Source: Candidatus Kaiserbacteria bacterium (GTDB lineage: Bacteria; Patescibacteriota; Minisyncoccia; Phycocordibacterales; UBA2100). Taken from it: a stretch of 64,000 bases of DNA. The notes beneath the pieces are model-generated. The model made no database searches, was not told the origin of the DNA, and was given only the letters and a program-made list of their open reading frames with translations. Shown in pieces: positions 25,122 to 46,085 of this stretch. Each line of letters opens with the position of its first letter. Position 1 is the first letter of the stretch. A program made the translations under genes and the position numbers. The stretch lies in NCBI GenBank assembly GCA_016214605.1, contig JACROD010000014.1:41074-105073 (forward strand), given 5' to 3'.

Positions 25122-25244
25122 GTGGGCGTAGGTTTTTTTATAAGCAAAGCGAATTAGAAAACCAAGTGCAAAGCTTCGCGCAATTTTTCAGCAGAAAAAT
25201 ATGCGTGACAGATGAGGAAGGTGGGGAGGTAGCGGCACGCCGCC

Positions 25245-26738
25245 GTGATACTATATTTTCTAATGATTGAGATTATTGCGATAGTGATTGCGTATCCATC
25301 AGCCTTGTACACACTTCGATATGTACGGCGGTTTTATACGAATGGCCTAGGGGCTTTTCTCGGAGGCGCAGCTATTTTCTTAATCATCGAGACATCGTTC
25401 ACTTTTGTTCTTGGTTTTTTGTTGCCATTGATATTCAGTTCTCTGTTATCCGGACAGGAAAGTGATGTAATCGGTATCCTTACGGAAGTTTTTCTGCGAA
25501 TATTTGGGACTGCCATAATGACAGTGCCTACCATTCTTGCATTAGCGGTTGGTTATAAACATATGCAGGGTTGGGCAATATCGACCGTTGATGTTTCATC
25601 CGTACGGACACCACTAGACTCAACTCACCGTGTTAGCAATACAATATCGTTACCGATAATAAGTGGAATTATCTTGGTGTTTCTCACCATCTTACCGTGG
25701 TGGACGACTATAACCTTCACCACTGCTCCGTTATTGGCCTCGAGATTTCATCAGCCGCAATGGTGCCTATGGATGCCGGAAGTCGCTTTTGATTCGGGGC
25801 GGTGGCAAAATCTCGCACCCGGGGTAGCCTGTCTCAAGAGGGCTCAAACAGATGAAGAATACTACGCACGTTGCGATTTGATGCCGGAAGCTGTTCGCGA
25901 ACCCATCGCCAATATCGATGATGCAAACAGTCCCTACCAAGATTGCATAATGCACAATGTCCAAGTAACCACACGAAACGCGACATCTTCGATGTTGGGA
26001 GCCGTGTCGAGTGCCGCTGATACATGCGGCCAAATCAAAGACTTGGAACGTAGAGCCACTTGCCTCCTTCCGTACACAAATACTTCCGCCCAGGGCGTCA
26101 TGTGTGCTGCTGTTTTTAATTCACTCGATCAAGGTTTTTTTGATGGTATTGACGCGGTAATAATCGGCCGATGTCTCGACAAACAAACAGTGAACGAGAA
26201 AATGTTTGAAGGTCGTCCGATATGGTTCAACTTCCACGTGGCTTCGGGATACAAACTTGGTAATCACGTTTCCGTCAAGCGAGATGATATATTGCAATGG
26301 CTAAAGTCAATCAATGTAAATCCCAATGCACGAACAGCAACATCGGCGCGCGGTTCGGCAGACAAGAGTGTGGCAGGGCAAACATTTCTTCTGTATTTGC
26401 TTGATGCGGGTTTACAGAGTCAGATATGGCTTTTCGTAACTGCGGATGACATCAAAGCACTTATTTCTTTTGGTGTTGATCCTCGTATCAAAGATATATC
26501 CGGTTGGTCCGCGATGGATTATGCGATCAAGTGGGGCAATATTGATGCGGTAGAGGTACTCTTGCCGTACTTCAAGGGATATGCCCCAAGACAAGAAGCA
26601 GCAGATTTTTTTCTCAAAGAGATTTGTGATTATCAAGCTGACACCGGAAAATGTTTTTCGATTTGGGATACTGAACAAGCGGCTGCCGAACGTGCTCGTG
26701 TTGGTTTTCAAAAACTAGGATTTATCCAATTCAAATAA
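25245..26738 (+). CDS. multi-TM membrane protein with C-terminal ankyrin-like repeats
   Basis: 497 aa; relatively AT-rich; N-terminal 5-6 TM helices; C-terminal ankyrin-like segments. Confidence 0.45.
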   Translation: MILYFLMIEIIAIVIAYPSALYTLRYVRRFYTNGLGAFLGGAAIFLIIETSFTFVLGFLLPLIFSSLLSGQESDVIGILTEVFLRIFGTAIMTVPTILALAVGYKHMQGWAISTVDVSSVRTPLDSTHRVSNTISLPIISGIILVFLTILPWWTTITFTTAPLLASRFHQPQWCLWMPEVAFDSGRWQNLAPGVACLKRAQTDEEYYARCDLMPEAVREPIANIDDANSPYQDCIMHNVQVTTRNATSSMLGAVSSAADTCGQIKDLERRATCLLPYTNTSAQGVMCAAVFNSLDQGFFDGIDAVIIGRCLDKQTVNEKMFEGRPIWFNFHVASGYKLGNHVSVKRDDILQWLKSINVNPNARTATSARGSADKSVAGQTFLLYLLDAGLQSQIWLFVTADDIKALISFGVDPRIKDISGWSAMDYAIKWGNIDAVEVLLPYFKGYAPRQEAADFFLKEICDYQADTGKCFSIWDTEQAAAERARVGFQKLGFIQFK

Positions 26739-26775: not shown

Positions 26776-27414
26776 ATGAAGACTTTTGCTTTTATTGATG
26801 CGTCCAATCTCTTTTATGGCGGCAGAAAATCGCTCGGGTGGAGTATTGATTATGAAAAATTACTCGCATACCTGAAGAAAAAATATGAGGTAGAAACTAT
26901 CTATTTTTTCGGCGGCGTAGAGATACATCGGTTTCCATTCGATTACCTTGCGCACGAGACGGTACCTGTACGACAGCTCGAGGAGTATTTGGCAGGGTTG
27001 ATCAAGGAAAAAGGCGATTACATGAGCGATGCGCAGATTATACTTCTGGAGCGGCATTTGCGGCGTGTTCGCTTTTACCGCAAACTCGAACAATTCGGCT
27101 ACATGCTCGTATTGAAACCGGTCAAAACCTACGATGAGGAGGGTAATCCGCGCCGCAAGGCCAACTGCGATGTGGACATGGCATACTGCCTTATGAGGGA
27201 ACTGAACAATTTCAATCGCGCGTTGGTGCTTTCCGGCGACGGCGATTTCTTGCCGGTGTTGAAATTTTTGCGAGCGAACGAGAAAGAGGTGCTGGTGATG
27301 GCGCGCGGGCACCGGACGGCAAAGGAAATCAAAAGATTTGCCGGGGATAGATTCATGGACTTCACACGCTTGCAACATAAACTGCAGCGCGATGAAGAAG
27401 AGGAACTATATTAA
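26776..27414 (+). CDS. NYN/LabA-like domain nuclease
   Basis: FAFIDASNLFYGG…, CDVDMA…, SGDGDF motifs of the NYN/PIN-like fold; preceded by TATAAT at about 26763. Confidence 0.65.
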   Translation: MKTFAFIDASNLFYGGRKSLGWSIDYEKLLAYLKKKYEVETIYFFGGVEIHRFPFDYLAHETVPVRQLEEYLAGLIKEKGDYMSDAQIILLERHLRRVRFYRKLEQFGYMLVLKPVKTYDEEGNPRRKANCDVDMAYCLMRELNNFNRALVLSGDGDFLPVLKFLRANEKEVLVMARGHRTAKEIKRFAGDRFMDFTRLQHKLQRDEEEELY

Positions 27415-27506: not shown

Positions 27507-28157
27507 ATGCTCTATCTCTACACAGGTACCGACAGGATGAAGGCGCGTGCGGCGCTGGGTGCTGGGCGCGCCAAGCTCGCCCCTGGCGTGCCGGTTATCC
27601 ACATCACCGATATTCACACCACAGAGGACCTGGATGCCGCGCTTGCCGGGGGAGGGATGTTTGCAGGTGTGCGTGCAGTGGTGCTCGACGAGCTCTTTGA
27701 TCGCGAAGAAATGCGCGAGCGGATAGTAGGGCAGCTCGAGCGTATCGCATCGGCGAGTGATCACTTTTTTATATATGTGGAAAAGCTCGATGCGGCTACG
27801 CGCCGACAGATCGAAAAGCATACGACCAAGTCAGAGCAGTTCGATCTGCCAAAAAAGGCCGATAGATCAAGCTCAATATTTAACCTCGGTAATGCATTGC
27901 GCGCCCGCAACAAAAAAGATCTCTGGGTGAGCTATCAGCGCGAGCTCGCGAATGACGCGGCTCCTGAGGCGATCCATGGCGTGCTCTTTTGGGCGGCAAA
28001 GCAGATGCTCATGTCGGCACGATCTGAAGCGGAGGCAGTGCGCGGCAAGAAACTCATCGCTACACTCGCGGCACTGCCGCACGAGGCGCGACGGCAGGGA
28101 GTGGACCTGGAATATGCACTGGAGCGATTTGTGCTCTCCGGTGACGTGGTATCATGA
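27507..28157 (+). CDS. holA: DNA polymerase III delta subunit (short form)
   Basis: 216 aa; N-terminus MLYLYTGTD and overall HolA-like pattern. Confidence 0.5.
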   Translation: MLYLYTGTDRMKARAALGAGRAKLAPGVPVIHITDIHTTEDLDAALAGGGMFAGVRAVVLDELFDREEMRERIVGQLERIASASDHFFIYVEKLDAATRRQIEKHTTKSEQFDLPKKADRSSSIFNLGNALRARNKKDLWVSYQRELANDAAPEAIHGVLFWAAKQMLMSARSEAEAVRGKKLIATLAALPHEARRQGVDLEYALERFVLSGDVVS

Positions 28158-29698
28158 GAGGCATGAGACAAACGCAAGATAGCGTTTTCGCGTCCGCATC
28201 AACTGTCGGTATTTTTGTGCTCGTTTTTATTTTTGGGTTTCTTTTGTTGTCTAACCAAGCCTATGCGGCAAACAAGGAAGGTAATCAGCAATGTATGGGG
28301 GAGTGGGATGAGATGTGTATGTGTGGCACAAAAATGGATCCCATGACTGGTTCGTGTGTGCCTAGTGGCAACAAAAAAATGTGCCCCTGCAAAGACACAA
28401 CGAGCGGACAAACGACGAGTGGCGTATGTGTGCAACAAGGAAAATGCGAAGCCAAATCATCCGGCGGTCAGGGCGTCGACAGTATGCTCAGTCAGCTCGG
28501 GCAGATGCTCGGCAAGGCAATGGAAGCCCTCAAGGGAGGTGGTGGAGGGGGAGGAGGTGGCGGACAGCCGCCGCAAATGCCGCAGAGCGGAAGTGGTGGT
28601 GGCACGGGGACCGGTTCTCAGGCGTGTACTTCGTACTACCAAGTATCTACCCCCTCAAGCGACCCGTGTGCTTATTATGTCCCCAACATCGCCAACGACC
28701 TAAACAACACGGCCAGCGATCTTTCAGGCGCACTCAATGGCAACGGCACACTCCCACCCCCCGCTACTACCAATGGTGGTAATACAAACAACACTACAGG
28801 CGGGAGTACCTCAGGAGGAGGCACTACAAACAACACATCCACCGAGGACGCCGCTTCGCAAGCTGTCGTTGCACAGAAGGCGAACTCTATCCTTGGTTTC
28901 ATACTGAATCCGGCAAGTGTGTTTTTGGGCAGTACGACGCAACAGCAGACTGTAGTGAATGCGGATGGAACCGTGTCTACCAACACATCGTATTCGTTCT
29001 TCGGTCAGGGTGTTTCGCCGTCGGCCATCCCTGGATTAGGAGATTTTGCCTCTTTTGCGAACATTGCCAATATTATTTCCGGCGAAAACCAAGGAGGTCT
29101 GCAACTCGGCAATAACGGCGTGACCATCACGTCATCGAGTCGAGATGCGAATTCCAATACTGCCGTATCAGGTTTCTATGGTGCCGATACGATAGGTGGA
29201 GTAGGTGTGCAGGGTCTCGCCGCGTGGCTGTGCCGTACTCGGCCATGGGCAAGCAGTATTTTCTCAAAGATTGTATCGGTGTCCTATTTCGATAATCTTT
29301 GTACAAAAAATGGCTATCAAGTAGGTGGTGCGGCTCCGGTGCGGACGACTGCGCCGGTACTAACACAGACTGTTGTCCCTGCGAAAAAAAATACACCCGC
29401 GACAACGACTCAGAGTAATCCATCTACGAATCCGGCGGCGACTACTGTGCCACCGCATGTGCAGGTCTGGGCCGTTCCTGCGATCGTTTCGATCGGTTCG
29501 CGCACCTCGGTCTTTTGGAGTGCGCGTGGGGTGGAGAGCTGCATTGTGACAAGTCCTGACGGCAGCTTCCACCAATCATCGCTTTCGGGAGGGGCGTCGA
29601 CGGTGCCGCTCACCTCTGCGACGACCTACTCTATATCATGTCTCACCGCAGGCGGAACACCGGCCACCGACTACTTCACAGTCAAGATGGCGATATAG
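28154..29698 (+). CDS. secreted Cys-rich/Gly-rich surface protein with C-terminal Ig-like domain
   Basis: 514 aa; signal/TM anchor, Cys-rich N-region, poly-Gly tract; C-terminal domain shared with 35682..37859. Confidence 0.6.
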   Translation: MRGMRQTQDSVFASASTVGIFVLVFIFGFLLLSNQAYAANKEGNQQCMGEWDEMCMCGTKMDPMTGSCVPSGNKKMCPCKDTTSGQTTSGVCVQQGKCEAKSSGGQGVDSMLSQLGQMLGKAMEALKGGGGGGGGGGQPPQMPQSGSGGGTGTGSQACTSYYQVSTPSSDPCAYYVPNIANDLNNTASDLSGALNGNGTLPPPATTNGGNTNNTTGGSTSGGGTTNNTSTEDAASQAVVAQKANSILGFILNPASVFLGSTTQQQTVVNADGTVSTNTSYSFFGQGVSPSAIPGLGDFASFANIANIISGENQGGLQLGNNGVTITSSSRDANSNTAVSGFYGADTIGGVGVQGLAAWLCRTRPWASSIFSKIVSVSYFDNLCTKNGYQVGGAAPVRTTAPVLTQTVVPAKKNTPATTTQSNPSTNPAATTVPPHVQVWAVPAIVSIGSRTSVFWSARGVESCIVTSPDGSFHQSSLSGGASTVPLTSATTYSISCLTAGGTPATDYFTVKMAI

Positions 29699-29715
29699 TG
29701 GGTAAACTGGTTGCT

Positions 29716-30032
29716 CTTGTGGTCAGGGATAATTCGATCGCCGTCGCGATCGAATTTCCCCGACCCGGCCTCGCGGCTCGGCCTACTGGCCTCGCATCGC
29801 TCCGGCTCGCACTCGTAGACAAAAACAGCCCGCAAGTAGGTGTTTCCTTGTGGTCACAGATAATTCGTTTGCCGTCGCAAACGAATTTCCGCGAAGCTTT
29901 GCACTTGGTTTTCTAATTCGCTTCGCTCATAACAAAACCTACGCCCGCCTCGCGGTCTCGCCTACTGGCTCGACAACGCTCTGTCTCGCACATGTACACA
30001 AAAACAGTGCGCAGGCACTGTTTTTGGTCATG
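29716..30032. repeat. two tandem copies (A 29716-29846, B 29847-30032) of a hairpin-bearing repeat family located 3' of tRNA genes
   Basis: each copy begins cttgtggtcaNNgataa + 10-bp hairpin with loop ccgtcg, then conserved GC-rich core, then hairpin 2 plus T-run; third copy at 35384-35522. Confidence 0.8.
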
Positions 30033-30105
30033 TGCGCCCAGTTGGATTCGAACCAACGACCCACTCCTTAAAAGGGAGATGCTCTACCAACTGAGCTATG
30101 GGCGC
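30033..30105 (-). tRNA. tRNA-Lys (anticodon TTT)
   Basis: 73-nt cloverleaf; anticodon loop cttttaa; T-loop ttcgaat; CCA not encoded. Confidence 0.9.
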
Positions 30106-30168
30106 AATAGAGGACTGATACCCAACTATCTAGTTGGATTACACAGAATATAACAGTACAATACGAAA

Positions 30169-30696
30169 ATGTCACTCGATGATATGGAATGGCGCAAAAA
30201 GAATGAAGGGTTGAGTGGTTTCGAGCCGATCAATAGAATAGTGGCCGATGAAAAGAGGCGTCGCCTTTTTGAGCGTTTTTTAAACCTCAACAGCAAAGAC
30301 GATGGAATCGTCCAAAGCATCTACGGGCGGTATCAAGATAAAATACCGTTCACCGAAATACAAAATGCGTTCCTCAAAGATAAATATCCGGAGTTCCAGG
30401 AGCGCATGGACCTGATGAGAGAGGCAGAAAGGGAGCTGACCGAAGAAAATGTGAGAGATATGGGGGATATGATGCAGCATAATCTCTTCGGGGCGACACC
30501 AGAGCAGTTACAGGATTATCTAGAACATATGGCGATCGTGCGTCCTGATGCGCTACGTAAAGTGCTTGAGATCAAGCAGCAGATCAAAGAAGAAAACAAA
30601 GGGATCGTGCCGGTCGTAGGTGAGATCGCGATGGGTCTTGTGGCAGACCAGGCCAGTCTTTGGAAGGGTAGCGGGTGGGCGCACCTCAGAGCGTAA
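30169..30696 (+). CDS. hypothetical charged/helical protein
   Basis: 175 aa ORF starting downstream of tRNA-Lys. Confidence 0.4.
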   Translation: MSLDDMEWRKKNEGLSGFEPINRIVADEKRRRLFERFLNLNSKDDGIVQSIYGRYQDKIPFTEIQNAFLKDKYPEFQERMDLMREAERELTEENVRDMGDMMQHNLFGATPEQLQDYLEHMAIVRPDALRKVLEIKQQIKEENKGIVPVVGEIAMGLVADQASLWKGSGWAHLRA

Positions 30697-31063
30697 AAAG
30701 CCGAAGGAGAAAAAAGAACCGTCCAGTTTTGATCTTGGCGGCCGGCACACCGAGTATACCGACGTCGAGGCGGAACGATACAAAGACCCAAGAGATTTTT
30801 ACGATGAGGTCGAACGCCAACTTGAGAAATATAACGATAAAACGGAAGCATGGAGACTGATTGAAAATTTCCTTCCGCTGCATATCGAGCGTCAACGAGA
30901 CCGTGGACCAGCGCGTGCGCGGCTCCACGATCTCATCATCAAACAAGAAAACAAGGAAGAGGCGCTCAAGTTTTTGAAAGAAAAACTTGGTCTATCGGAT
31001 TCCACCGAAGAGGCGGACGCAGAGACAGGACAAAAAGAGAATGAAGATGAGGCCGCAGAGTAA
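30620..31063 (+). CDS. hypothetical acidic protein (possibly a frameshifted continuation of 30169..30696)
   Basis: +1 frame overlapping 77 nt with the upstream ORF; no ATG, track start is GTG. Confidence 0.3.
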   Translation: MRSRWVLWQTRPVFGRVAGGRTSERKKPKEKKEPSSFDLGGRHTEYTDVEAERYKDPRDFYDEVERQLEKYNDKTEAWRLIENFLPLHIERQRDRGPARARLHDLIIKQENKEEALKFLKEKLGLSDSTEEADAETGQKENEDEAAE

Positions 31064-31076
31064 AACAAAGGAGATC

Positions 31077-31490
31077 TTAGAGCGGCAGATCGAAAGCGAA
31101 GGTACCTGCACCGGAGATAATGAGTGATATGCAGATGACGAAGAGGAGTGTATAGGTGCCGCGCGAGAGGGGAATGATGGCAGTATAGCGATGGATTCCG
31201 ACGTAATGCTTCACAGCAAGCAGGGCACCGAAGATCGCGGCGACTTGGGTATAGAGCCCGACCGCAAGCAGGGCACCGATGAGTCCGGTAGCGAAGACGG
31301 AGATCCATACGAGCCACAGGGGCATGCGACCGATCATGGGAACATCACGTAATTCAGCGATCTTATGTCGATCGCGGGCGATAGAGTTGGCCATGTAGAG
31401 GAATGCGTAGCCAGCCGCTACACGTATGAGCGCGGTTGCAAACGGCGAGAGATATAAAAGGCCGGGGAATACGGAAAATACTTGGAACAT
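31077..31490 (-). CDS. DoxX-like small membrane protein
   Basis: 137 aa, four hydrophobic helices. Confidence 0.4.
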   Translation of the reverse strand: MFQVFSVFPGLLYLSPFATALIRVAAGYAFLYMANSIARDRHKIAELRDVPMIGRMPLWLVWISVFATGLIGALLAVGLYTQVAAIFGALLAVKHYVGIHRYTAIIPLSRGTYTLLFVICISLIISGAGTFAFDLPL

Positions 31491-31522
31491 GATGGTTAGT
31501 ATAGCACCTTTTATGGTAGTGT

Positions 31523-31996
31523 TTGTCCATGCAGACGGCGCTTTTGCTCCACAATATCCGCAGTGCCCACAATGTGGGTTCGATATTTCGTACAGCCGAT
31601 GCGGCGGGAGTATCGAGGATATATCTCAGCGGTTACACGCCGACGCCGGTAGACCGCTTCGGGCGCGCACAAAAAGAGATCGTAAAGACTGCGCTCGGTG
31701 CCGAGAAGGATGTCTCGTGGGAATATGCGGCGACCCCCGCGCCTTTTATAAGGCGTATGAAGAAGGAGGGGTGGCGGATCGTGGGGGTGGAGCAAGATGC
31801 GCGGGCGACCGATTATCGCGCACTCACGCTCGATCGTCCGACACTCTTCATTCTCGGCAACGAGGTGCGCGGCATCTCGCCCTCACTGCGCGGCCAGTGC
31901 GATGTTCTCACTGAAATACCGATGCATGGAAAAAAAGAATCTCTCAACGTCGCCGTAGCGGCGGGCATCGTGCTGTTTGCATCGGCGGGTTTTTAG
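31523..31996 (+). CDS. SpoU/TrmH-family RNA 2'-O-methyltransferase
   Basis: motifs LLLHNIRSAHNVGSIFRTADAAG, LFILGNEVRGIS, ESLNVAVAAGIVLF (SPOUT knot). Confidence 0.8.
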   Translation: MSMQTALLLHNIRSAHNVGSIFRTADAAGVSRIYLSGYTPTPVDRFGRAQKEIVKTALGAEKDVSWEYAATPAPFIRRMKKEGWRIVGVEQDARATDYRALTLDRPTLFILGNEVRGISPSLRGQCDVLTEIPMHGKKESLNVAVAAGIVLFASAGF

Positions 31997-32970
31997 TATG
32001 TCACCGCATCCACGGTGCGGCCTTTGGCGTCGAGAAGTCGGATGATGTCGTGTCGATCATCCCAGATGCTACGCTGAGCATTGATAAAGAGACGCCACGA
32101 ATTATGCAGAAAAGATGATTCGTTTTGATGGAGATGCACGCAGCCGTTGTAGGAGAACGTATTGGTCACATACGAGCGGCATGCGGGGGAAAGAGAGGTG
32201 GGCAGATCTTGAGGAAACTCGCATGAAGAAAGGTTGCGCACATAGTCGAGACAACTTGATCCGTAGGTGCGAAGGTTTTCTGGGGTCTCGGGAAACACTT
32301 TTGATGGGTCCGGACACACGGAAAAATCTAGGCTCGGATAAAATGCCTGCAGCTTGCCGAGGTAGCCGCTGCATATATTTTCATGGAATGACACGCCGAC
32401 TGGCGAGACGCCGGAAGTGATAATAGCAGTCGCTCCTGGTTCGAGGGTGACCGACCCAGTGCTATTGACCGCTCCTCCGATAAAGGCCGAAGCGGCTGGT
32501 GGCAGGTAGTAGCGTTCTCCTGAGACGGCGCTCTGCACTGACCATCCGGTGATGTCCACTGCACCTTCGTTGTCGCGAGATGCGGTGACGGCCACGTATT
32601 CTTTCGAAGGGTTGTTTTCTGTGGCACGACCTTCTTGAAGCGTTACTTGTGAGCGGTACGGCGACGGCATGCCGAAGTTTCGTGCTTGGTCGATCTGCTC
32701 TTGCGAGTATCCGGTGCCTCCCACCCCGCCGGAATTGTCGCTCGTGTATTGTGAAATATCTGCAGCTCCAGGAATGGAGACAGAGTCTTGCCATGGCAGC
32801 TTGATGCTGAAGAGTTTGGGTATGAGCGAGCCGTTGAGAAGGGAGGAGATGATGTCCGGTTGAGATTTTGCTGCACTGATAACCTTGGCCGGCCCGCCGC
32901 TGATCACCCAAAAGATGATCATGAGGAAGATGGCGGTGGCTACGAGGGCCGCGATGATCTTTCCAATCAT
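31993..32970 (-). CDS. membrane-anchored extracellular hypothetical protein
   Basis: 325 aa; N-terminal TM helix then Cys-containing ectodomain. Confidence 0.5.
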   Translation of the reverse strand: MIGKIIAALVATAIFLMIIFWVISGGPAKVISAAKSQPDIISSLLNGSLIPKLFSIKLPWQDSVSIPGAADISQYTSDNSGGVGGTGYSQEQIDQARNFGMPSPYRSQVTLQEGRATENNPSKEYVAVTASRDNEGAVDITGWSVQSAVSGERYYLPPAASAFIGGAVNSTGSVTLEPGATAIITSGVSPVGVSFHENICSGYLGKLQAFYPSLDFSVCPDPSKVFPETPENLRTYGSSCLDYVRNLSSCEFPQDLPTSLSPACRSYVTNTFSYNGCVHLHQNESSFLHNSWRLFINAQRSIWDDRHDIIRLLDAKGRTVDAVTY

Positions 32971-32978
32971 GAATCGTA

Positions 32979-34268
32979 TTATACCTTGTCGGTGGAAGAT
33001 GGCGACCTTTTTGCAAGGATCTTTTGTAGTTCTTCGCGCGCTACCGCCGCGTCGCTCCAGGGAATCTTAGAACCTTGCGGGCCGCAGATGCATGGGTCGG
33101 TTCCTTTGCCGGAAATAAGCACCGCGTCCCCTGTGCGGGCGAGTCGCAGCGCTGCTGCGATCGCCTCGCGTCGGTCCATAATAATCTCTGGCGTGCGTTT
33201 CATGCCGCGCGCGAGCTCATCGACGATCGATCGCGGATCCTCATCATACGGGTCTTCGTTGGTGAGGATCACTTGGTCGCATCGCTCGTCGGCGATTCTT
33301 CCCATGACAGGGCGTTTCCATAGGTCGCGGCCGCCGCCCGTCGACCCCAAGACGCAGATTTTTCGGTCAGGACCATATGCATCATAGAGGGCGGTGAGCG
33401 AATCCGGTGTGTGAGCATAGTCGACGACAACTATAAAATCTTGCCCTTCGTCGATTCGTTCGGCACGGCCGGGGATGGTGTGTAGGTTGTCGAGGGCGCG
33501 TGCGATCACAAGTGGTTTGACGCCCATTGCCTGTGCGAGTGTTGCAGCGGCGAGCGCATTTTTCAGAGAAAAGTCGCCGGGCAAGTGTATGTGGATGCCC
33601 ACATCAAAGAATCGGAACGATCCGCCGTTCTCGTCCGATGAGTGTACAGGGGTGGCAGAGAGCGAGAAGGGGAGGCGTGTCTCGACGGAGAGCATGAGGT
33701 AGCGAGACCCCTGTGCATCGTCGCTGTTGGCGACGACGATGCGCGGACGCTTGCTTGAGCGTGCGAGTTGGCGGCCGATCTCGAATTTTGCATCTGCGTA
33801 CGCATCGAATGATCCATGCGATTCGATGTGCTCGGGAGCGAGGTTGGTGAAAATGAGACCGTCGATTTCGATCGCGCGATGGCGGTATTGCCGCGCGCCT
33901 TCGGATGTCATTTCGATAATAGCAGCGGTGCATCCGCGCTGGACCGCATGCGCGAGAAACCGTTGGATGAAGAATCTTCCCGGCATGGACATGCGCATGA
34001 GGTTGGGCTTCGACGTGTCCGCGATCTTGATGCGTATCGAATTGAGTACGGCGGTCGTGTACCCGGCTTCTTCCAGGATGGCGTTGAGCATTTCGGTCGT
34101 ACTCGACTTGCCTTTGGTGCCGGTCACGGCGAATACGAGCAGTTTGCGCGAAGGATATCCGTATATAAAAGCGCCGATAGAGGGGGTCACAAAATGATAC
34201 ACGCGCTGCAATGGATCGAGTATGGAGGGCGGAATGATATTCACGATGGCGTGTTTAAGACGGTACAT
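32979..34268 (-). CDS. murE: UDP-N-acetylmuramoyl-tripeptide synthetase (Mur ligase, MurE-like)
   Basis: internal ATG (MYRLKHAIV…) of track ORF 32979..34400; Mur ligase P-loop VTGTKGKSSTTEM. Confidence 0.75.
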   Translation of the reverse strand: MYRLKHAIVNIIPPSILDPLQRVYHFVTPSIGAFIYGYPSRKLLVFAVTGTKGKSSTTEMLNAILEEAGYTTAVLNSIRIKIADTSKPNLMRMSMPGRFFIQRFLAHAVQRGCTAAIIEMTSEGARQYRHRAIEIDGLIFTNLAPEHIESHGSFDAYADAKFEIGRQLARSSKRPRIVVANSDDAQGSRYLMLSVETRLPFSLSATPVHSSDENGGSFRFFDVGIHIHLPGDFSLKNALAAATLAQAMGVKPLVIARALDNLHTIPGRAERIDEGQDFIVVVDYAHTPDSLTALYDAYGPDRKICVLGSTGGGRDLWKRPVMGRIADERCDQVILTNEDPYDEDPRSIVDELARGMKRTPEIIMDRREAIAAALRLARTGDAVLISGKGTDPCICGPQGSKIPWSDAAVAREELQKILAKRSPSSTDKV

Positions 34269-34275
34269 ATGGTAT

Positions 34276-34848
34276 TTATCGAGTACCCAAAAGTTTGAGC
34301 GCTTCGCGCAGGCGTTCGTTGCTGTTGGCGATATCGGCGGGGACTTTGCGCAGCGCTTCGCGCGCCTCTTGTGCGGAATATCCGAGCGCGCGCAGGGCAT
34401 CCAATGTATCGATGTCTCCCGAAAGTGCCTCCCCTGATCCGTCGATTCCGAGCCCGACCTTGTCGCGCAGTTCGAGCACGATCTTCTCGGCGGTCTTTTT
34501 GCCGATACCGGAGACCGAGGTGAGGTACCCGGCGTTGCCGCCTGAGATCGCGCTACGCAGCGTTTCGACTGATGCGATGTCGAGAATACTCAGGGCAGAC
34601 CGAGGGCCGATACCCGATACGGAGAGAAGGAGATTGAAAAAACGAAGCTCCTCTTCAAGGATGAAACCATACAGATCGAGGATATCTTCGCGCACCGCAA
34701 GGTGGGTCCAAAATGCGATCGAAGTGTCTGTCTTGAGGCTGGCGAGGGCTTCCTTGGTGGCAAAAACCTTATATCCGACCCCGCCCGCAAGAAGGATGCA
34801 GTAAGTGGGGCGTATGGCCCGAACGGTGCCCTCAATGTAGCCAATCAT
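34276..34848 (-). CDS. ruvA: Holliday junction DNA helicase RuvA
   Basis: internal ATG giving MIGYIEGTVRAI… (canonical RuvA N-terminus); C-terminal RuvB-interaction domain. Confidence 0.85.
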   Translation of the reverse strand: MIGYIEGTVRAIRPTYCILLAGGVGYKVFATKEALASLKTDTSIAFWTHLAVREDILDLYGFILEEELRFFNLLLSVSGIGPRSALSILDIASVETLRSAISGGNAGYLTSVSGIGKKTAEKIVLELRDKVGLGIDGSGEALSGDIDTLDALRALGYSAQEAREALRKVPADIANSNERLREALKLLGTR

Positions 34849-34893
34849 GAATACATCATACATCAATACGAGTGATTTTCTCGCCAGCACGTC

Positions 34894-34931
34894 ATACATG
34901 CATCCTATGCTATAGCATCGGATGCATGTAT
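34894..34931. promoter_or_regulatory. 38-bp palindrome in the ruvA / rpsT divergent promoter region (candidate operator)
   Basis: atacatgcatcc-tatgctatagca-tcggatgcatgtat; arms acatgcatcc/ggatgcatgt and atgcta/tagcat. Confidence 0.45.
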
Positions 34932-34999
34932 ATGTACTTCCTTTTGGTTTGTTTTGTGTCACTTGCAAAATACTTCGAAAGCCTGTACTATCCCACCCA

Positions 35000-35266
35000 A
35001 TGGCATACACAAAGAACGCCAAGAAAGCAAATCGCGTCAACAAGCGCCGACACGTCTTCAACACGCGCCACAAAAAGGCCGTAAAGGATGCGGTCAAGGA
35101 GACCGCTAAGCTCATGGTGGGCAAGAAGCCTGCTGATGCGGCGAAGTCGCTCCCAGGCCTCTACAAGGCGATTGATAAGGCGGCCAAACACGGCACCATC
35201 AAGAAAAATACGGCTGCGCGCATGAAGTCGCGTATCACCAAGCGACTTGTGGCAGCGACGAAATAA
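35000..35266 (+). CDS. rpsT: 30S ribosomal protein S20
   Basis: internal ATG giving MAYTKNAKKANRVNKRRHVFNTRHK…; Lys/Ala-rich S20 pattern. Confidence 0.8.
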   Translation: MAYTKNAKKANRVNKRRHVFNTRHKKAVKDAVKETAKLMVGKKPADAAKSLPGLYKAIDKAAKHGTIKKNTAARMKSRITKRLVAATK

Positions 35267-35287
35267 CCTTTTATCTAACAAAGAAAA

Positions 35288-35312
35288 GCCTCCCTTTCGG
35301 GAGTTTTTTTCT
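35288..35312 (+). terminator. rho-independent terminator after rpsT
   Basis: gcctccc-tttc-gggag followed by TTTTTTT. Confidence 0.6.
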
Positions 35313-35383
35313 TTGTAATCAGTAGGCGTATTTCCATGGGGTCGCGCGTACTCGCGCGACATCGCTCCGGCCGGTATATGTCT

Positions 35384-35522
35384 TTCATGTGGTCACGGAT
35401 AAATGAGTCGTCGTCACGACTCATTTTCCGCGACCCCGGCTCGCGGCTCGGCCTGCCGGCCTCGCAGCGCTGCGCCCGGCACATGCACCGAAAAACAGCA
35501 CGCAGGTGCTGTTTTTCTGTCA
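35384..35522. repeat. copy C of the tRNA-flank repeat family
   Basis: catgtggtcacggataa + hairpin aaatgagtcgt/acgactcattt, conserved ggctcgcggctcggcctgccggcctcgca core, hairpin aaaaacagcac-gcag-gtgctgttttt. Confidence 0.8.
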
Positions 35523-35594
35523 TGTGCCCCCGGCAGGAATCGAACCTGCATTACGAGCTCCGCAAGCTCGCGTTCTATCCATTAAACTACGGGA
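35523..35594 (-). tRNA. tRNA-Arg (anticodon GCG, unusual)
   Basis: 72-nt cloverleaf; anticodon arm cgagc-ttgcgga-gctcg; T-loop ttcgatt. Confidence 0.7.
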
Positions 35595-35681
35595 GCAATA
35601 CCCGACCATCCTTTAGAGGAAGGGATAGGGGACAATGTAGCACAGAATGATCGCTTTTCCACACTTTGTTCTAAAATAGCA

Positions 35682-37859
35682 TTGCGCTGTGTGCGTGCAG
35701 GGCACATCATAAAGGGCATGTCCTACCTCTTTGGGTCCGGTTCACGTCGCGGTCTTTCTACACAGACGGGATCGACCATTCTCGCAGCACTTCTCTTGGT
35801 CGCTGTCGCAGGTATCTTTTCTATGGTGCTCCACTACGGCAGTTCTCTCAATGATCGTTTAGCATACCAAACCCAAGGACTGACCGCGGCAGCGGACTAC
35901 TCTTCGCCGATTGCCCCTGCTCCCGCGCCGCTCAACCTCAGTTCATCCCAAGCCTCCGATCAGCCTACCAAGACGGAGACGACCCCGCCAAAAAAATGCA
36001 AAGATAACAAAGTAGATAGTGGCCAAATTAAAGGAGGATCAACCGGCGCCAATAGGGGGGCGATCCAATTTACCGCAGAGTGTCTCCCCGGATGTAAATA
36101 TAAAGTTTCTGTCAGTGGCGACTCATCTTCCGCTGAGGGCGAGTACCAAGCCACAAATCCAGAAGACGTTTCGGACTCGTCCAAACCTTGTACAGTGTGC
36201 GACTCAAACGGGTGTTACAGCCAAAAGATCGGCGCCGACGGCAAACCAGTCCCCGGAAGCACCATGCAGTGCGATTCAAGCGGCAATAACTGCAAACCGG
36301 TCGATCAGTCGACAGTGGGCAAATCGACAGCGACGGATCCTGCCGCTGCGCAACAGGCTTTGCAGGCTGCCGCGAAAGAGGTCGCAGCTCAAGCAAGTCT
36401 CGGTACGACAGCAGGTACTGCACAGGCGCAGGCAACAGCAGACGATTTCCTCACTAAGAATCCGGGGTTGGCAAAGGATTTTGGTGCCGCACTGGAACAA
36501 CAGAAAGCAAATATCCCAATCAACAGCGAAGAATCTGCATATCCCACGATCGATAACATACAACAAAAGATCGCGAGCCTTGCCGGGCCAGATGCGGGCG
36601 GAAGTACGCCAGCACCGAGCGGAGATTTTAAGGGTCAGCTCGTACCCATTGGCGCTGCTGCGGATGTTTGCCAAGGCGATACGAACTGCCTTTCAATGTT
36701 TACGCCCCAAGCAGCTCCTGGTGGTACACCGGCTCCGGCTCCGGGTACAACTCCTGCTCCAGGAGGTAATCAGCCACCCTGTCCATATGGCTACTGGATA
36801 GCGAGTACTGACCCCATCGACGTTAGGTGTAATACACAACCGAACACGAGTTTTGGCGACGGGCCCGGCGGTGGTGGTATGACCAGTGGCGTTATGTCAT
36901 TCTTGGGCGGTATGATGCGTGGTATGGGCTACGGAGGGATGGGTGGATACGGAGGTTATGGTGGCTATGGTGGAATGGGTGGGTATGGTGCCGGAGGATA
37001 CGGCGTCCCGCCGGGCAATACGATCCCGCAGGGAGCCGGGGCATGCAATACCCAATACATGTGCCAAGGTCAAACGCTCTTGTATCGCAACAATCAATGC
37101 GTCGATCAACCGATGCAGCAGTGCCCCTACGGATGCAATGGTAATCAATGCGCCCAACAAAACGGCCAACAACAGCAGCAGGGACAGTACGGGTATGGCA
37201 CCAACAACCAGCCGTGTATGCAGCCGCCGATGCGGCCGGATGCATCTACCTGCACTACTGGCACATGGAAAGCCACCTCTGCCACCAACAACGGCTGTAC
37301 TACGGGCTGGCAGTGTGTAGCAGACGGTGGTAGTACCAACACTGCCTCGCCGATTGCATCACTCTCATGCCAATCACAGGTTGCTGATGTGGGCTCTACC
37401 TTTGCGATCTCATACAGTTGCCAGCGTGCGGTCACTTCGCTCGGCGGAGGTTTCGATACGCAAGGACAGCTCACTGGTGGTGCTACGGTCACTATCGGGG
37501 ATCCTCCGGCCGGTACCAATACCGCCACCTATACGCTCGGTTGTCGCAATAGCGCGGGGCTCACCGTCGGCGCGCAATGCAGTGTGCAGATCAATAAGCC
37601 CTTGATCGCTCTTACAGTTAATCCTTCTTCGGTAGCGGTTGGCGCCACATCAACCGTTGGTTGGGTCACGAGTGGCATGCAGTCATGTGTTGTCTCGAGT
37701 CCCGATAACGCCATCTTCACTGCCCAAAATGCAAGCAGCACCAACGTCAACGGTGTGGCGGTGACCCCACACTTGACCGCAACGACCCATATTCAGCTCA
37801 ATTGTAGGACCTTTGGAGGCGGAATTCGTGCGACATCGACGACGATCTCGGTGCAATAA
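35682..37859 (+). CDS. large secreted Cys-rich protein with Gly/Tyr-rich low-complexity region and two C-terminal Ig-like domains
   Basis: 725 aa; TM/signal anchor; GYGGMGGYGGYGGYGGMGGYG tract; C-terminal domains similar to the 28154..29698 C-terminus. Confidence 0.65.
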   Translation: MRCVRAGHIIKGMSYLFGSGSRRGLSTQTGSTILAALLLVAVAGIFSMVLHYGSSLNDRLAYQTQGLTAAADYSSPIAPAPAPLNLSSSQASDQPTKTETTPPKKCKDNKVDSGQIKGGSTGANRGAIQFTAECLPGCKYKVSVSGDSSSAEGEYQATNPEDVSDSSKPCTVCDSNGCYSQKIGADGKPVPGSTMQCDSSGNNCKPVDQSTVGKSTATDPAAAQQALQAAAKEVAAQASLGTTAGTAQAQATADDFLTKNPGLAKDFGAALEQQKANIPINSEESAYPTIDNIQQKIASLAGPDAGGSTPAPSGDFKGQLVPIGAAADVCQGDTNCLSMFTPQAAPGGTPAPAPGTTPAPGGNQPPCPYGYWIASTDPIDVRCNTQPNTSFGDGPGGGGMTSGVMSFLGGMMRGMGYGGMGGYGGYGGYGGMGGYGAGGYGVPPGNTIPQGAGACNTQYMCQGQTLLYRNNQCVDQPMQQCPYGCNGNQCAQQNGQQQQQGQYGYGTNNQPCMQPPMRPDASTCTTGTWKATSATNNGCTTGWQCVADGGSTNTASPIASLSCQSQVADVGSTFAISYSCQRAVTSLGGGFDTQGQLTGGATVTIGDPPAGTNTATYTLGCRNSAGLTVGAQCSVQINKPLIALTVNPSSVAVGATSTVGWVTSGMQSCVVSSPDNAIFTAQNASSTNVNGVAVTPHLTATTHIQLNCRTFGGGIRATSTTISVQ

Positions 37860-38481: not shown

Positions 38482-38967
38482 ATGGGTGAGCGATATAAAA
38501 GAACGCCAAACACAAGCTGTCTCGTGTGTCAGGCGCCGATTTATCGGCGCCCCATTGAGCTTCGCAGAAAACAGAGAGTATTTTGCGGTTCGCGCTGCTA
38601 CGGACTTGCCTCAAGGAAGGAGACGCCGTGTGTTGTTTGTGGTGTTTTGATCCTCGCTCATAAGCGCGCCAAGACTTGCAGTAGAGTCTGCGCCAATACT
38701 CATAGGGCAGGTATTAAATATAAACTAAGTTTACCGAGAAAAGATAAAGTAAAAGACCAGAGAGCCTTGAAATTACGACTCATGGATCAGCGCGGGACAA
38801 AATGTGAGCGATGTGGTTACTCAAAGAAAGAGATCCTGCACGTGCATCATCGAGACCGAAACAGAAACAACAATGACCTGAGCAATCTTGCACTTATCTG
38901 CCCAAACTGCCATTATGAAGAGCATTATTTAGAAAATAGCTGGCTTAGTGGTAAGGTGGGGTTCTAG
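38482..38967 (+). CDS. HNH endonuclease with Zn-ribbon motifs
   Basis: HVHHRDRNRNNNDLSNLALICPNCH HNH motif; several CxxC pairs; stop 2 nt before tRNA-Ser. Confidence 0.7.
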   Translation: MGERYKRTPNTSCLVCQAPIYRRPIELRRKQRVFCGSRCYGLASRKETPCVVCGVLILAHKRAKTCSRVCANTHRAGIKYKLSLPRKDKVKDQRALKLRLMDQRGTKCERCGYSKKEILHVHHRDRNRNNNDLSNLALICPNCHYEEHYLENSWLSGKVGF

Positions 38968-38969
38968 AA

Positions 38970-39054
38970 GGAGGGGTCGGATAGTGGTTCATTCCAGCGC
39001 ACTTGAAATGCGCCATACCGCAAGGTATCGTGGGTTCGAATCCCACCCCCTCCG
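38970..39054 (+). tRNA. tRNA-Ser (anticodon TGA)
   Basis: 85 nt; anticodon arm gcgca-cttgaaa-tgcgc; long variable arm atacc-gca-ggtat; T-loop ttcgaat. Confidence 0.85.
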
Positions 39055-39073
39055 CAGAAAGGATTAGGAAGGT

Positions 39074-39553
39074 CTATTTTACTCGCGTGAGCCAAGTCCC
39101 GCAGATCAAAAGCAGTGTGGTGCAGAGGGCCGACAGTGCGCAGTACAGACAGATCGCGCCGATCAAGAATGCTTGGATCGACATAAACATGACCGACATG
39201 AGAAAGCCGACCAGTGTGAGCGCAAAGAGTGCGAGGATTTGTGTGCGCGAGACCGCGGCTTCAGTGTAGAGGTAGAGTGCGAAGAACATCACGACGAGAT
39301 AATACAGGACGCCAAAAAAAGCGAGCGGTATCGGCCCCACCATCGCATAGGGAGACGTGAGCACTGCTTCACAGCCATGGGTGATCGAGCAGGGGAGCGG
39401 GAGCTTGAAGTAGTGATCGGCGAGAAGGTACGCAGAATCGACGAAGCCGACGAAGCTCACGCCGGTGATCGCCGTGAGCAGCCTCAGGAGCGTTTTATTG
39501 CGCGCTGGTGCTTGAGGCGAGAGCGGCGTCGATGAGGGATTTGAATTCGTCAT
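39074..39553 (-). CDS. vitamin K epoxide reductase (VKOR)-family membrane protein
   Basis: CxxC in TM helix (ICLYCALSAL) and loop Cys pair (CSITHGC); 5' 58 nt overlap the dsbA-like gene, so the true start may be the internal GTG. Confidence 0.65.
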   Translation of the reverse strand: MTNSNPSSTPLSPQAPARNKTLLRLLTAITGVSFVGFVDSAYLLADHYFKLPLPCSITHGCEAVLTSPYAMVGPIPLAFFGVLYYLVVMFFALYLYTEAAVSRTQILALFALTLVGFLMSVMFMSIQAFLIGAICLYCALSALCTTLLLICGTWLTRVK

Positions 39554-40196
39554 ATCCTTTGGGGTTTTGGATCTGTGTGAGGTTGATAAAGAATGTCGGC
39601 GTGTGATCGACCTGTGCGGCGTTGGCCCCGGTCACGTCTTTTTGGATCTTGGCCTTTACAGTGTCCGACTTGAGGTCCGCATCGAATTTCTTTACATCCA
39701 AGCCGAGCGATGCTGCGTATTTGTCGAAGTACTCGGCGACCACCGAGCCGGTGGATACCTCGCTCCATTCGGCTTGTTTCTGGTACAAGAGATCGTGCAT
39801 CTCCCAATACTTGCTCTGCATCCCGGCAGCTTCTGCGGCCATAGATGCGGTCTCGGCATTTTTGTGTACTTGATAGAGGGGAAAGTTGCGGAAAACGAAC
39901 TGTACCCTACCGGCGTATTCGCTTTCGAGTCTCTCGACGATTGGCTCATACGCGCCGCATGCGGGGCACTGGAAGTCGCCGTACTCGATCACTGAGACGG
40001 TGGCTCCGAGGGGGCCTTTGGTATGATCGTCGGCGGTGATCGCAGAGGTCTGCGTGCCGGTAAATGGCCTGGCTTGCTGGGCGCTTTTGCCCGATGAGGC
40101 GACGCCTGCAAAGATCATAAGGGCGACAATAATAACCACAAAACCCGCACCGATAAATAATTCCTTGCGTCGAGAAGTGTCCATGGGGACCATCAT
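39495..40196 (-). CDS. DsbA-like thioredoxin-fold thiol:disulfide oxidoreductase
   Basis: TM anchor + CPAC active site (EYGDFQCPACGAY). Confidence 0.75.
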   Translation of the reverse strand: MMVPMDTSRRKELFIGAGFVVIIVALMIFAGVASSGKSAQQARPFTGTQTSAITADDHTKGPLGATVSVIEYGDFQCPACGAYEPIVERLESEYAGRVQFVFRNFPLYQVHKNAETASMAAEAAGMQSKYWEMHDLLYQKQAEWSEVSTGSVVAEYFDKYAASLGLDVKKFDADLKSDTVKAKIQKDVTGANAAQVDHTPTFFINLTQIQNPKGYDEFKSLIDAALASSTSAQ

Positions 40197-45941: not shown

Positions 45942-46085
45942 CTACTTCGCTCCGAAGCTTCGCAACGGAGCTTCGAAGTGCACGGCACTACAAATACCCA
46001 TATTACGTTGTTACCCTACAAGCGAAGTAGCCCTTCGTAGCTCAGTAGAGCGAAGGAGGGCATATTTGTGGCACGTACAACCGTG

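Follow-up and report, generated by a model that had tools for sequence, protein, structure and literature searches.

We analysed a 64-kb window of a Candidatus Kaiserbacteria metagenome-assembled genome (MAG), to which all positions below refer, and in it two genes for putative exported proteins, two tRNA genes and a repeated non-coding element. ORF1 (open reading frame 1; 514 aa, 28154..29698, + strand) is followed by tRNA-Lys(UUU) (30032-30105, -), and ORF2 (725 aa when read from a TTG codon, 35682..37859, +) is preceded by tRNA-Arg(GCG) (35524-35596, -). Both tRNA genes hold conserved positions, the former downstream of ORF1 orthologues and the latter between rpsT and ORF2 orthologues. The original prediction for this locus had read it as a locally expanding family of paralogous surface proteins, each gene trailed by the same repeat and a tRNA. 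The repeat that it described is real; ~120 nt long, it adjoins a tRNA in each instance and occurs in copies 76-82% identical to one another. The best overall explanation, which we hold to be reasonably probable, is that two putative exported proteins, alike only in their end domain, happen to lie beside a non-coding element found throughout the Candidate Phyla Radiation (CPR) at the 3' ends of tRNA genes.

Element copies at two tRNA genes of the window

On the tRNA-Lys side, a hairpin termed H0 (A-run, stem, CUGC loop, stem and U-run; 30000..30025, -), recognised from its sequence and with an extended stem that pairs with the tRNA 3' end, is followed by two units that run to the ORF1 stop. The first unit, copy B (29843..29985, -; 50 and 23 bits with a covariance model), is disrupted: helix P3 is intact, and helix P2 is split off (29947-29985) by an insert of ~48 nt (29890-29944) that recurs at 25126-25180. 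The second unit, copy A (29712..29828, -), is a complete three-way junction of helices P1, P2 and P3 (covariance model R1, 113 bits, E 6e-35). On the tRNA-Arg side, an H0 hairpin with the same CUGC loop (35491..35516, -; sequence and fold) and a single unit form a block that lies wholly between rpsT and ORF2. This unit, copy C (35382..35498, -; junction proper ~35386-35486), is again a complete three-way junction (R1, 107 bits, E 9e-33), and beside it a truncated remnant consisting of the P2 hairpin only (35340..35380, -) was recognised by a partial nhmmer match and its sequence. A variant copy without an adjacent tRNA stands just after polA (25126..25218, +; R1, 21 bits, E 4e-5) and combines a variant P3 with the same ~48-nt insert as copy B.

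The repeat belongs to the tRNAs, standing 3' of each and on the same strand, and not to the protein genes. The earlier description of a repeat plus tRNA following each gene thus applies to ORF1 but not to ORF2, where the block lies upstream. The minus strand of the window copies folds far better than shuffled sequences (z -5.1 for copy A and -7.9 for copy C), and multiple compensatory changes preserve the 11-bp distal stem in the three copies, where it reads AATTCGATCGC, AATTCGTTTGC and AAATGAGTCGT, paired in each case with the complementary strand. Occupancy is uneven. The element is carried by 2/7 tRNAs of the window, and among the related Kaiserbacteria-type contigs used for synteny (L001, L003, L004, L005, L006 and L007, one complete genome included) the orthologous rpsT/tRNA-Arg spacer holds two tandem copies in L006, a degenerate copy in L005 and none in L003 and L004.

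Several further observations concern the same sites. After polA, the window has two extra genes, for an ankyrin-repeat membrane protein (25245-26738) and an NYN-domain protein (26776-27414); in L001, L003 and L004 holA follows polA directly, and the variant copy at 25126-25218 marks the left edge of the window insertion. Spurious ORFs run over element copies and tRNAs at 29638-29916, 29850-30071, 35336-35650 and 35403-35585. After the tRNA-Lys gene downstream of the ORF1 orthologue, L007 carries a different, shorter element (6106-6271, -), made of an H0-type hairpin, a T-arm-complementary segment and a hairpin ending ..GCGTGGTCC, then the 3' end of tRNA-Lys again, as a 19-nt direct repeat (CGAATCCAACTGGGCGCAC). 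Because model R1 misses this shorter element, the pattern-defined set described below probably covers only part of the family. A second, unrelated tRNA-trailer motif, TACTTCGC..CTTCG.AGTGCACGGCAC, occurs at 45943-46060 of the window (after tRNA-Arg-tct), where a tRNA-5'-like fragment (GCCCTTCGTAGCTCAGTAGAGCGAAGG) comes after it, and at 9700-9895 of L001 (after tRNA-Lys).

A covarying three-way junction conserved across CPR bacteria

On the tRNA strand, the element is a ~105-nt three-way junction that lies ~20 nt past the tRNA end, behind the CUGC-loop hairpin H0. An alignment of 90 copies gave the P1/P2/P3 architecture, in which P1 is the helix closing the junction. P2 reads G-N-C / GGAG / CNN-AUG / variable stem / CAGCAG-type loop, with a GA-rich internal loop; P3 comprises GGUCGCG, R-AAAUU, a variable stem and a GACG loop, with a bulged A and a G-U, and YGUGACC after the loop. 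The RNAalifold consensus contains 31 pairs, 22 of them compensatory. When P1 is included, the 39 pairs show 89.4% paired cells against 70.0% after shuffling (0/500 shuffles) and 725 double-change cells against 245 in shuffles (0/500), and slid-register controls give 33-43% paired. One P3 pair alternates between G-U (50) and G-C (39); because this pair would read A-C on the other strand, the tRNA strand is the folding strand.

H0 has features of its own. Its loop is CUGC at 33/69 element-bearing tRNAs and at 13/160 others. By eye it fits an intrinsic terminator (11-bp stem, A-run and U-run), and it was not among the hits of a consensus terminator scanner. Pairing of a terminator hairpin back onto the tRNA 3' end is also seen where the element is absent, for example at the window tRNA-Leu and in L007. 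The repeat might on these grounds be nothing other than reiterated intrinsic terminators, or a palindrome like the REP (repetitive extragenic palindromic) sequences, kept where convergent genes meet: H0 is a canonical A-run/stem/U-run hairpin, the window elements lie between convergent genes (ORF1 against tRNA-Lys, rpsT against tRNA-Arg), and rpsT has a terminator of its own (35290-35303). The conserved part, however, is the 105-nt three-way junction, which itself has no U-run; its loops (GACG, CAGCAG), its junctions and 29 covarying pairs are kept over phyla, and the terminators of element-free tRNAs lack any three-way junction. We consider this explanation very improbable.

The distribution of the element was charted with a fixed-geometry pattern derived from the P3 hairpin, scanned over a species-representative genome collection with about five chance matches estimated. 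At least 116 stretches matched, 115/116 of them in Patescibacteria (CPR) and one, a chance match, in Verrucomicrobiota. The lineages among the matches listed are Saccharibacteria, Paceibacterota and Kaiser-, Taylor-, Nomura-, Lloyd-, Campbell-, Zambryski- and Moraniibacteria, so that, within the reach of the pattern, the element appears restricted to the CPR. Covariance model R1, built from the alignment, found 143 copies in 100 loci, some of them in arrays two to five units long.

Judged by Rfam 15 and by the literature open to search, the element is undescribed. Against Rfam 15, only tRNAs reached threshold in the window region and 16 CPR loci, and with lax filters and 200-250-nt inputs the best scores were 12-22 bits, compared with gathering scores of 37-100. 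No description was found in the literature searched, which included a paper on Patescibacteria tRNA introns and lay mostly outside subscription journals. Known classes of structured sequence were considered and set aside: CRISPR, TIGR arrays, integron attC sites and group II intron fragments do not fit the sequence, nor do hammerhead or other known ribozymes, SRP, 6S or RNase P RNA or box C/D RNA, and none has an Rfam match. A phage origin was likewise rejected, the P3 pattern being nearly absent from viral contigs (2 matches in 2.9 million). These two matches lie in IMG/VR contigs of 132 kb and 53 kb (L124 1188-1235 and L125 2086-2133), which may represent CPR phages or misbinned CPR DNA, if the matches are not due to chance.

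No linked protein gene accompanies the element. Among the neighbouring ORFs of 115 loci of 8 kb, no protein family was enriched, and a serine-recombinase-like ORF occurred in only 4. No reverse transcriptase was found beside the window copies, and none was enriched in the loci. These results bear on the idea that the junction is a retron-like template RNA, or that of another reverse transcriptase, used in trans. The closing helix P1, the conserved-loop P2 and the long variable P3 recall the layout of retron msr-msd RNAs, and a segment of the unit complementary to the tRNA 3' end (X', below) recalls a primer-binding site. With neither a reverse transcriptase nor any other enriched gene in the 8-kb loci, no Rfam match, and a multi-copy, tandem occurrence unlike that of retrons, this account is very improbable, slightly more so than the terminator one.

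Coupling of the element to its tRNA

A tRNA gene lies within 400 nt on the 5' side of 85/119 copies (116 loci), co-oriented with the element in 83 of these 85, and the spacing from the tRNA end to the P3 core has its mode at 84-92 nt, with 56 cases. At least 14 tRNA identities are served (Arg, Lys, Val, Ile, Leu, Ala, Glu, Asp, Tyr, Cys, His, Phe, Met and Ser). In 19 copies a further co-oriented tRNA follows no more than 400 nt downstream, in some at 8-35 nt.

Read along the tRNA strand, the unit consists of the tRNA, its trailer X, H0, a segment X', the junction with P2 and P3, and a second copy of X. X' is the complement of the tRNA 3' end plus trailer and has two alternative partners, the tRNA end and the downstream X; pairing with the latter forms helix P1. 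The upstream tRNA's trailer and final acceptor nucleotides are matched by complementary sequence in the 5' strand of P1 and the junction nucleotides after it, as in GCGCAC/GUGCG, GGUCAC/GUGAC, GUCCAC/GUGGA and GGACAC/GUGUC; in the window, tRNA-Lys is followed by GUGCG and tRNA-Arg by GUGCC. Complementarity to the cognate tRNA exceeds that obtained when partners are shuffled (0/2000 and 0/5000), the effect being moderate in size.

Past the conserved 3' terminus (..UGACC), the flank carries tRNA sequence a second time. For most copies (class A) this repeat starts from A73-C74 and includes the trailer (in the window, ACATGAcAGA against ACATGAaAGA), and in ~17/87 copies (class B) 8-26 nt are repeated from the T loop to the tRNA 3' end, the lengths being 26 nt in L008, 20 in L104, 19 in L100 and L081, and 18 in L060 and L077, all loci with matches to the element or its pattern. 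Direct repeats of a tRNA 3' segment therefore flank the insert as attL and attR sites would. The integrase or recombinase expected of such an arrangement is missing, the unit being 130-200 nt long with no enriched neighbour ORF in the 115 loci. Measured against miniature inverted-repeat transposable elements (MITEs) and REP sequences, P1 is akin to terminal inverted repeats, flank repeats are present and near-identical copies exist in L034/L056; the window copies are only 76-82% identical, and no transposase was identified.

The near-identical copies come from one Taylorbacteria MAG, in which the tRNA-Lys(UUU) and tRNA-Lys(CUU) genes (L034 7636-7884 and L056 3951-4337) carry trailer + H0 + element units in tandem, two and three in number. 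This arrangement suggests recent spread or gene conversion between tRNA genes with a common 3' end.

Proposed nature of the element

The element is most likely a non-autonomous, gene-less unit that would depend on a folded single-stranded form. It would spread among the 3' ends of tRNA genes and duplicate in tandem there, entering at the discriminator or in the T loop; Williams (2002) is said to have described these entry points as classical integrase sublocations. Each element would bring a replacement tRNA 3' segment or trailer together with the hairpin, restoring the tRNA end, and a target-like site (the P3 end plus A-C) would be re-created, which would explain tandem growth. The element is very probably transcribed with its tRNA, and the conserved junction and loops would offer a handle for a trans-acting factor encoded away from the element. 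Signs of mobility are the tandem arrays, the fragments, the disrupted copy and the patchy occupancy of orthologous tRNA sites. What the sequences show directly is the element's structure, its distribution, its link to tRNA genes and the duplicated flank; the way it moves, its transcription and any role in the cell are inferences.

Several points weigh against this proposal. The terminator-like H0 with its U-run precedes the junction, which is odd for a co-transcribed RNA; its placement is explained by neither the mobile-element nor the host-RNA reading. Conservation of loops and junctions across phyla would also fit an RNA of benefit to the host, and the invariant positions of P3 are in part imposed by the search pattern, which fixed GGGTCG, GACG, TAT and TGACCA in the alignment. 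No enzyme candidate emerged from the neighbour genes of the 115 loci. The filled and empty sites come from relatives, with no near-identical genome pair that defines the insertion boundaries; class A flank repeats are short (3-13 nt); and the complementarity between junction and tRNA, while significant, is imperfect (1.4 of 2 positions against 1.07 when shuffled).

In the main rival reading, the element would serve the host as a tRNA-trailer RNA, made in one transcript with the tRNA and freed by processing of the RNase Z or RNase P type. Through a junction complementary to the cognate tRNA 3' end, such an RNA would take part in 3' maturation, in CCA addition or in quality control, or would work as a decoy; alternatively, it would stabilise or terminate tRNA transcripts. 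The common strand and fixed spacing relative to tRNAs, the 19 copies placed between two co-oriented tRNAs, the strand-specific G-U pairs, the loops and junctions conserved over CPR phyla and the complementarity specific to the upstream tRNA all agree with it, as does the resemblance, read from the sequence, of the basal 7 bp of P3 plus A-C(A) to an acceptor stem with its discriminator. It fits less easily with an element present at only 2/7 window tRNAs and missing at orthologous tRNAs of relatives, with tandem arrays, fragments and copies away from tRNAs, with a flank in which as much as 26 nt of the tRNA 3' end is duplicated, and with a terminator-like hairpin that comes first. Patchiness, fragments and flank duplications are explained less well by a host RNA than by a mobile element. 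We regard the host RNA as possible rather than probable.

The pairing between the unit and its tRNA also raises the possibility of a new CPR-specific class of RNA or single-stranded DNA that reads the tRNA 3' end by base pairing. A guide-like segment, formed by the P1 5' strand and the junction, would be directed against its own tRNA, at the trailer, the discriminator and the 3' strand of the acceptor, and each copy would in addition carry a decoy copy of that tRNA segment. We put this idea forward tentatively and consider it about as doubtful as the host RNA.

Two putative exported proteins that share only a C-terminal domain

Both ORFs exist as originally predicted, each with an N-terminal hydrophobic helix, many cysteines and Gly-rich tracts. 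Their best database matches are HZC00_01850 for ORF1 and HZC00_01905 for ORF2, both hypothetical proteins of a Candidatus Kaiserbacteria MAG, and searches of Pfam (E<=0.1), NCBIfam and PDB sequences found no relative for either.

ORF1 is supported by the ORF list and by 102 homologues in a full-length alignment, and contains 14 Cys and 13.6% Gly. Its family has at least 102 members in Kaiserbacteria, Paceibacterota and Minisyncoccia and a single conserved architecture: a signal helix, a Cys-rich domain, a helix with poly-Gly, the motif CTxYYQVxxPSSDPCAYYVP, a variable low-complexity stretch, an invariant core, a Pro/Thr linker and an immunoglobulin-like (Ig-like) end. True PKD inserts, separate from the Ig-like end, occur in the variable stretch of a few homologues. 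In an AlphaFold2 (AF2) model the N-terminal helix spans residues 9-32, and the N-terminal Cys-rich beta domain (aa 41-100; 28274..28453, +) is predicted with a predicted local distance difference test score (pLDDT) of 77-93 and conserved Cys47, 79, 92 and 98. The family-defining core (aa ~312-392; 29087..29329, +) consists of invariant alignment columns, GATI..NTxVAGFYG..LCxxRPWA..FFDSLCxxRGYQVG, and is covered by all 102 homologues, amounting to ~40% of the query. The C-terminal domain (aa 434-514; 29453..29695, +), with conserved Cys463/Cys496, is modelled by AF2 and matched by Foldseek as an Ig/PKD-like beta sandwich. NCBI annotates ORF1 as a protein of 459 aa (HZC00_01850) that starts ~55 codons late and loses the signal-like N-terminus (28154-28318); the long start is supported because homologues align across this region. 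The full-length model is poor (mean pLDDT 58.7), although aa 431-514 still form a beta sandwich. This low overall value counts against our account on the protein side, the core and N-terminal domains being not classifiable from the model.

ORF2 is Cys-, Gly- and Tyr-rich (29 Cys, 13.9% Gly), has a hydrophobic N-terminal helix and is putatively exported or anchored. The ORF list and homologues define it, and both the homologues and the NCBI call point to ATG 35718 as the probable start (713 aa, HZC00_01905). Detectable relatives are few; in the complete genome CP066682, the gene at the ORF2 position is 50% identical over the C-terminal 282 aa. A type IV pilin or PilX-like N-terminus was considered and rejected, as no N_methyl, PilX_N, Pfam or NCBIfam model matched and GSTILAALLLV has no Glu at +5; the pilin resemblance of the QxG-hydrophobic N-terminal helix has no model support. 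The AF2 model of aa 440-725 shows tandem sandwiches at aa 558-638 and 641-724 (pLDDT 80-92). The first (aa 558-638; 37353..37595, +; pLDDT ~80-88) resembles tandem Ig-like structures in Foldseek and matches weakly in sequence, and the second (aa 641-725; 37602..37856, +) is homologous to the ORF1 C-terminus and likewise modelled by AF2. The claim that the longer protein carries the domain twice is therefore borne out by the model but not by sequence, where the first copy is not significant (domain E 1.3-4.3) and BLAST of ORF2 against itself gave no internal domain repeat.

The C-terminal domains of the two proteins are homologous, as originally proposed. They are 31% identical over 74 residues (BLASTP E 8e-8), the match recurs in phmmer against the 909 six-frame ORFs of the window (E 4e-7), and hhalign of the two families aligned 79 C-terminal columns (E 1.2e-5) and no other region. 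The alignment is thus real, but it is the only homology between the proteins. Foldseek with the ORF1 C-terminus returned the PKD-like domain of ColG (4tn9; TM-score 0.65, root-mean-square deviation 3.1 over 87 columns) and an alpha-2-macroglobulin MG domain (2p9r, E 7e-4), and with the ORF2 tandem sandwiches its top matches were tandem Ig-like arrays (E 4e-7; GhpA, Fn3-like CbhA modules). Both C-terminal domains are accordingly modelled with an Ig/PKD-like beta-sandwich fold, in tandem in ORF2, in agreement with the structure expected of the shared domain.

An 83-position profile of the domain matched 6085 cluster representatives at E<=1e-3 among 1.84 billion, and the top matches carry 5-25 domain copies per protein, one named example being from the Patescibacteria group. 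ORF1, ORF2 and the multi-copy relatives do not match Pfam PKD (PF00801 / PF18911) or other curated Ig-like models. A domain common to more than 6000 clusters, often in multiple copies, is no sign of paralogy between ORF1 and ORF2, and it is a promiscuous repeat module of Patescibacteria-type surface proteins. Like the PKD-like and Big domains (ColG 4tn9; Aureispira grappling-hook protein GhpA 9flx), it is a ~80-aa beta sandwich that ends exported proteins and comes singly or in long tandem arrays. Unlike them, it matches no Pfam PKD or Big model, has its own conserved Cys pair and a W..SC..SPDG-type motif, and is attached here to N-terminal and core parts without known relatives.

Conserved gene order around ORF1 and ORF2

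The genes around ORF1 and ORF2 occur in a conserved order in L001, L003, L004, L005, L006 and L007. One part runs T2SSE, tsaE, polA, holA, ORF1 and tRNA-Lys(-); another runs DoxX, SpoU, LTD protein, Mur ligase, ruvA, rpsT, tRNA-Arg-gcg(-) and ORF2, after which come a 156-aa protein, tRNA-Ser, VKOR, DsbA, a sigma factor and ruvX. Because the genes and tRNAs hold the same positions in the related contigs, ORF1, ORF2 and both tRNAs are ancestral neighbours and not products of local duplication. The VKOR gene (39074-39553) and the gene for a DsbA-like thioredoxin (39495-40196; pair at 39074..40196, -; Pfam E 3e-25 and 6e-31) lie 1.2-2.3 kb from the ORF2 end and are syntenic in L005 and L006. In the window, no repeat stands downstream of ORF2, where the 156-aa gene is followed by an HNH gene and tRNA-Ser.

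These observations dispose of most of the evolutionary part of the original prediction. The proteins are not paralogues, since hhalign detects nothing in common outside the ~80-aa C-terminal module; the family is not locally expanding, as a hidden Markov model of the domain finds ORF1 and ORF2 as its only carriers in the 64 kb; and the context was not duplicated, the genes, tRNAs and VKOR/DsbA occupying the same syntenic positions in five other Kaiserbacteria-type contigs, one of them a complete genome. A recent local duplication of a module made of surface-protein gene, repeat and tRNA, in an expanding adhesin family, would draw on the C-terminal domain common to both proteins and on the repeat and tRNA near both genes. 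Only that ~80-aa domain is common, however, the repeat and tRNA lie downstream of ORF1 and upstream of ORF2, the tRNAs differ (Lys and Arg), the gene-tRNA pairs are syntenic elsewhere with or without the repeat, and there is no third copy within the window. This is the least probable of the explanations considered. The presence of repeat and tRNA beside both genes is a coincidence of ancestral synteny and an element that prefers tRNA flanks.

ORF1 and ORF2 appear to be vertically inherited, lineage-specific putative exported proteins of Kaiserbacteria. The reading of both as secreted and Cys-rich holds insofar as they look exported, disulfide-rich and Ig-like-ended, but no adhesin family expansion goes with it. 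On the evidence of their sequences, they most likely serve as cell-envelope or contact proteins with extracytoplasmic disulfides made by VKOR/DsbA. Dependence on this machinery is plausible; that its genes lie nearby reflects a long conserved gene block and not a specific linkage.

Other genes of these blocks include that of an exported lamin-tail (LTD) protein (31993-32970, -; Pfam LTD E 1.5e-9) with a Cys-rich C-terminal half, conserved in the same syntenic block of all related contigs and a further candidate envelope protein. The small HNH endonuclease gene (38482-38967, +; Pfam HNH E 7.5e-7) ends 3 nt before tRNA-Ser (38970-39055) and has no counterpart at the corresponding position of L005, L006 or L004. 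A LAGLIDADG gene separates the ORF1 orthologue from tRNA-Lys in L004, and these tRNA sites seem to collect homing-endonuclease-type genes as well.

Relation to known systems and implications

Like REP sequences and bacterial interspersed mosaic elements (BIMEs) and the Correia, RUP and ERIC repeats, the element is short, non-coding, multi-copy and hairpin-forming with compensatory changes, and it is intergenic, sometimes tandem and without a gene of its own. Unlike them, it is larger, forms a three-way junction and not a single palindrome, is conserved over many phylum-level CPR lineages, sits at tRNA 3' ends on the tRNA strand with fixed spacing, and carries sequence complementary to its particular tRNA. 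With integrative elements of tRNA genes and their gene-less or cis-mobilisable derivatives it shares the direct repeat of the tRNA 3' segment and a tRNA left intact, but the unit measures only 130-200 nt, has no integrase nearby, serves many tRNA identities and possesses an inverted target copy and a covarying structure that att sites do not need.

Two further comparisons concern RNA. As in tRNA-linked non-coding RNAs (plant tRNA-snoRNA dicistrons, mascRNA/MALAT1 and 3'ETS-leuZ), the element follows a tRNA immediately on its 3' side and shares its strand, and a structured RNA could be released from it by RNase Z or RNase P; it differs in being repeated, patchy and flanked by target duplications, and is known here from sequence alone. 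The closing helix, short conserved hairpin and long variable hairpin are shared with retron msr-msd RNAs, whereas the element is multi-copy and tRNA-linked and has no adjacent reverse transcriptase.

For the proteins, the lesson is that Ig-like ends and nearby tRNAs are no indication of a growing adhesin family. ORF1 and ORF2 are conserved envelope-protein candidates of an episymbiotic lineage for work on cell contact and nothing exceptional; the protein part of the original prediction is real but ordinary, and its evolutionary reading was wrong.

The element is the part that merits follow-up. CPR bacteria have tiny genomes with little non-coding DNA, and a unit of 130-200 nt at many of their tRNA genes therefore needs explanation. 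It occurs in Saccharibacteria, in Paceibacterota (Kaiser-, Taylor-, Nomura-, Lloyd-, Campbell- and Zambryskibacteria) and in Moraniibacteriota. In annotation, its units give rise to spurious ORFs and to wrongly placed gene starts close to tRNAs. Whether it is a new type of mobile element or a tRNA-linked RNA is directly testable in cultivated Saccharibacteria. If the tRNA 3' end is indeed read by base pairing, the element would be a tRNA-targeted mobile element whose choice of target is set by nucleic-acid pairing or, alternatively, a per-tRNA cofactor that helps to process or survey 3' ends in bacteria whose RNA-processing machinery is minimal.

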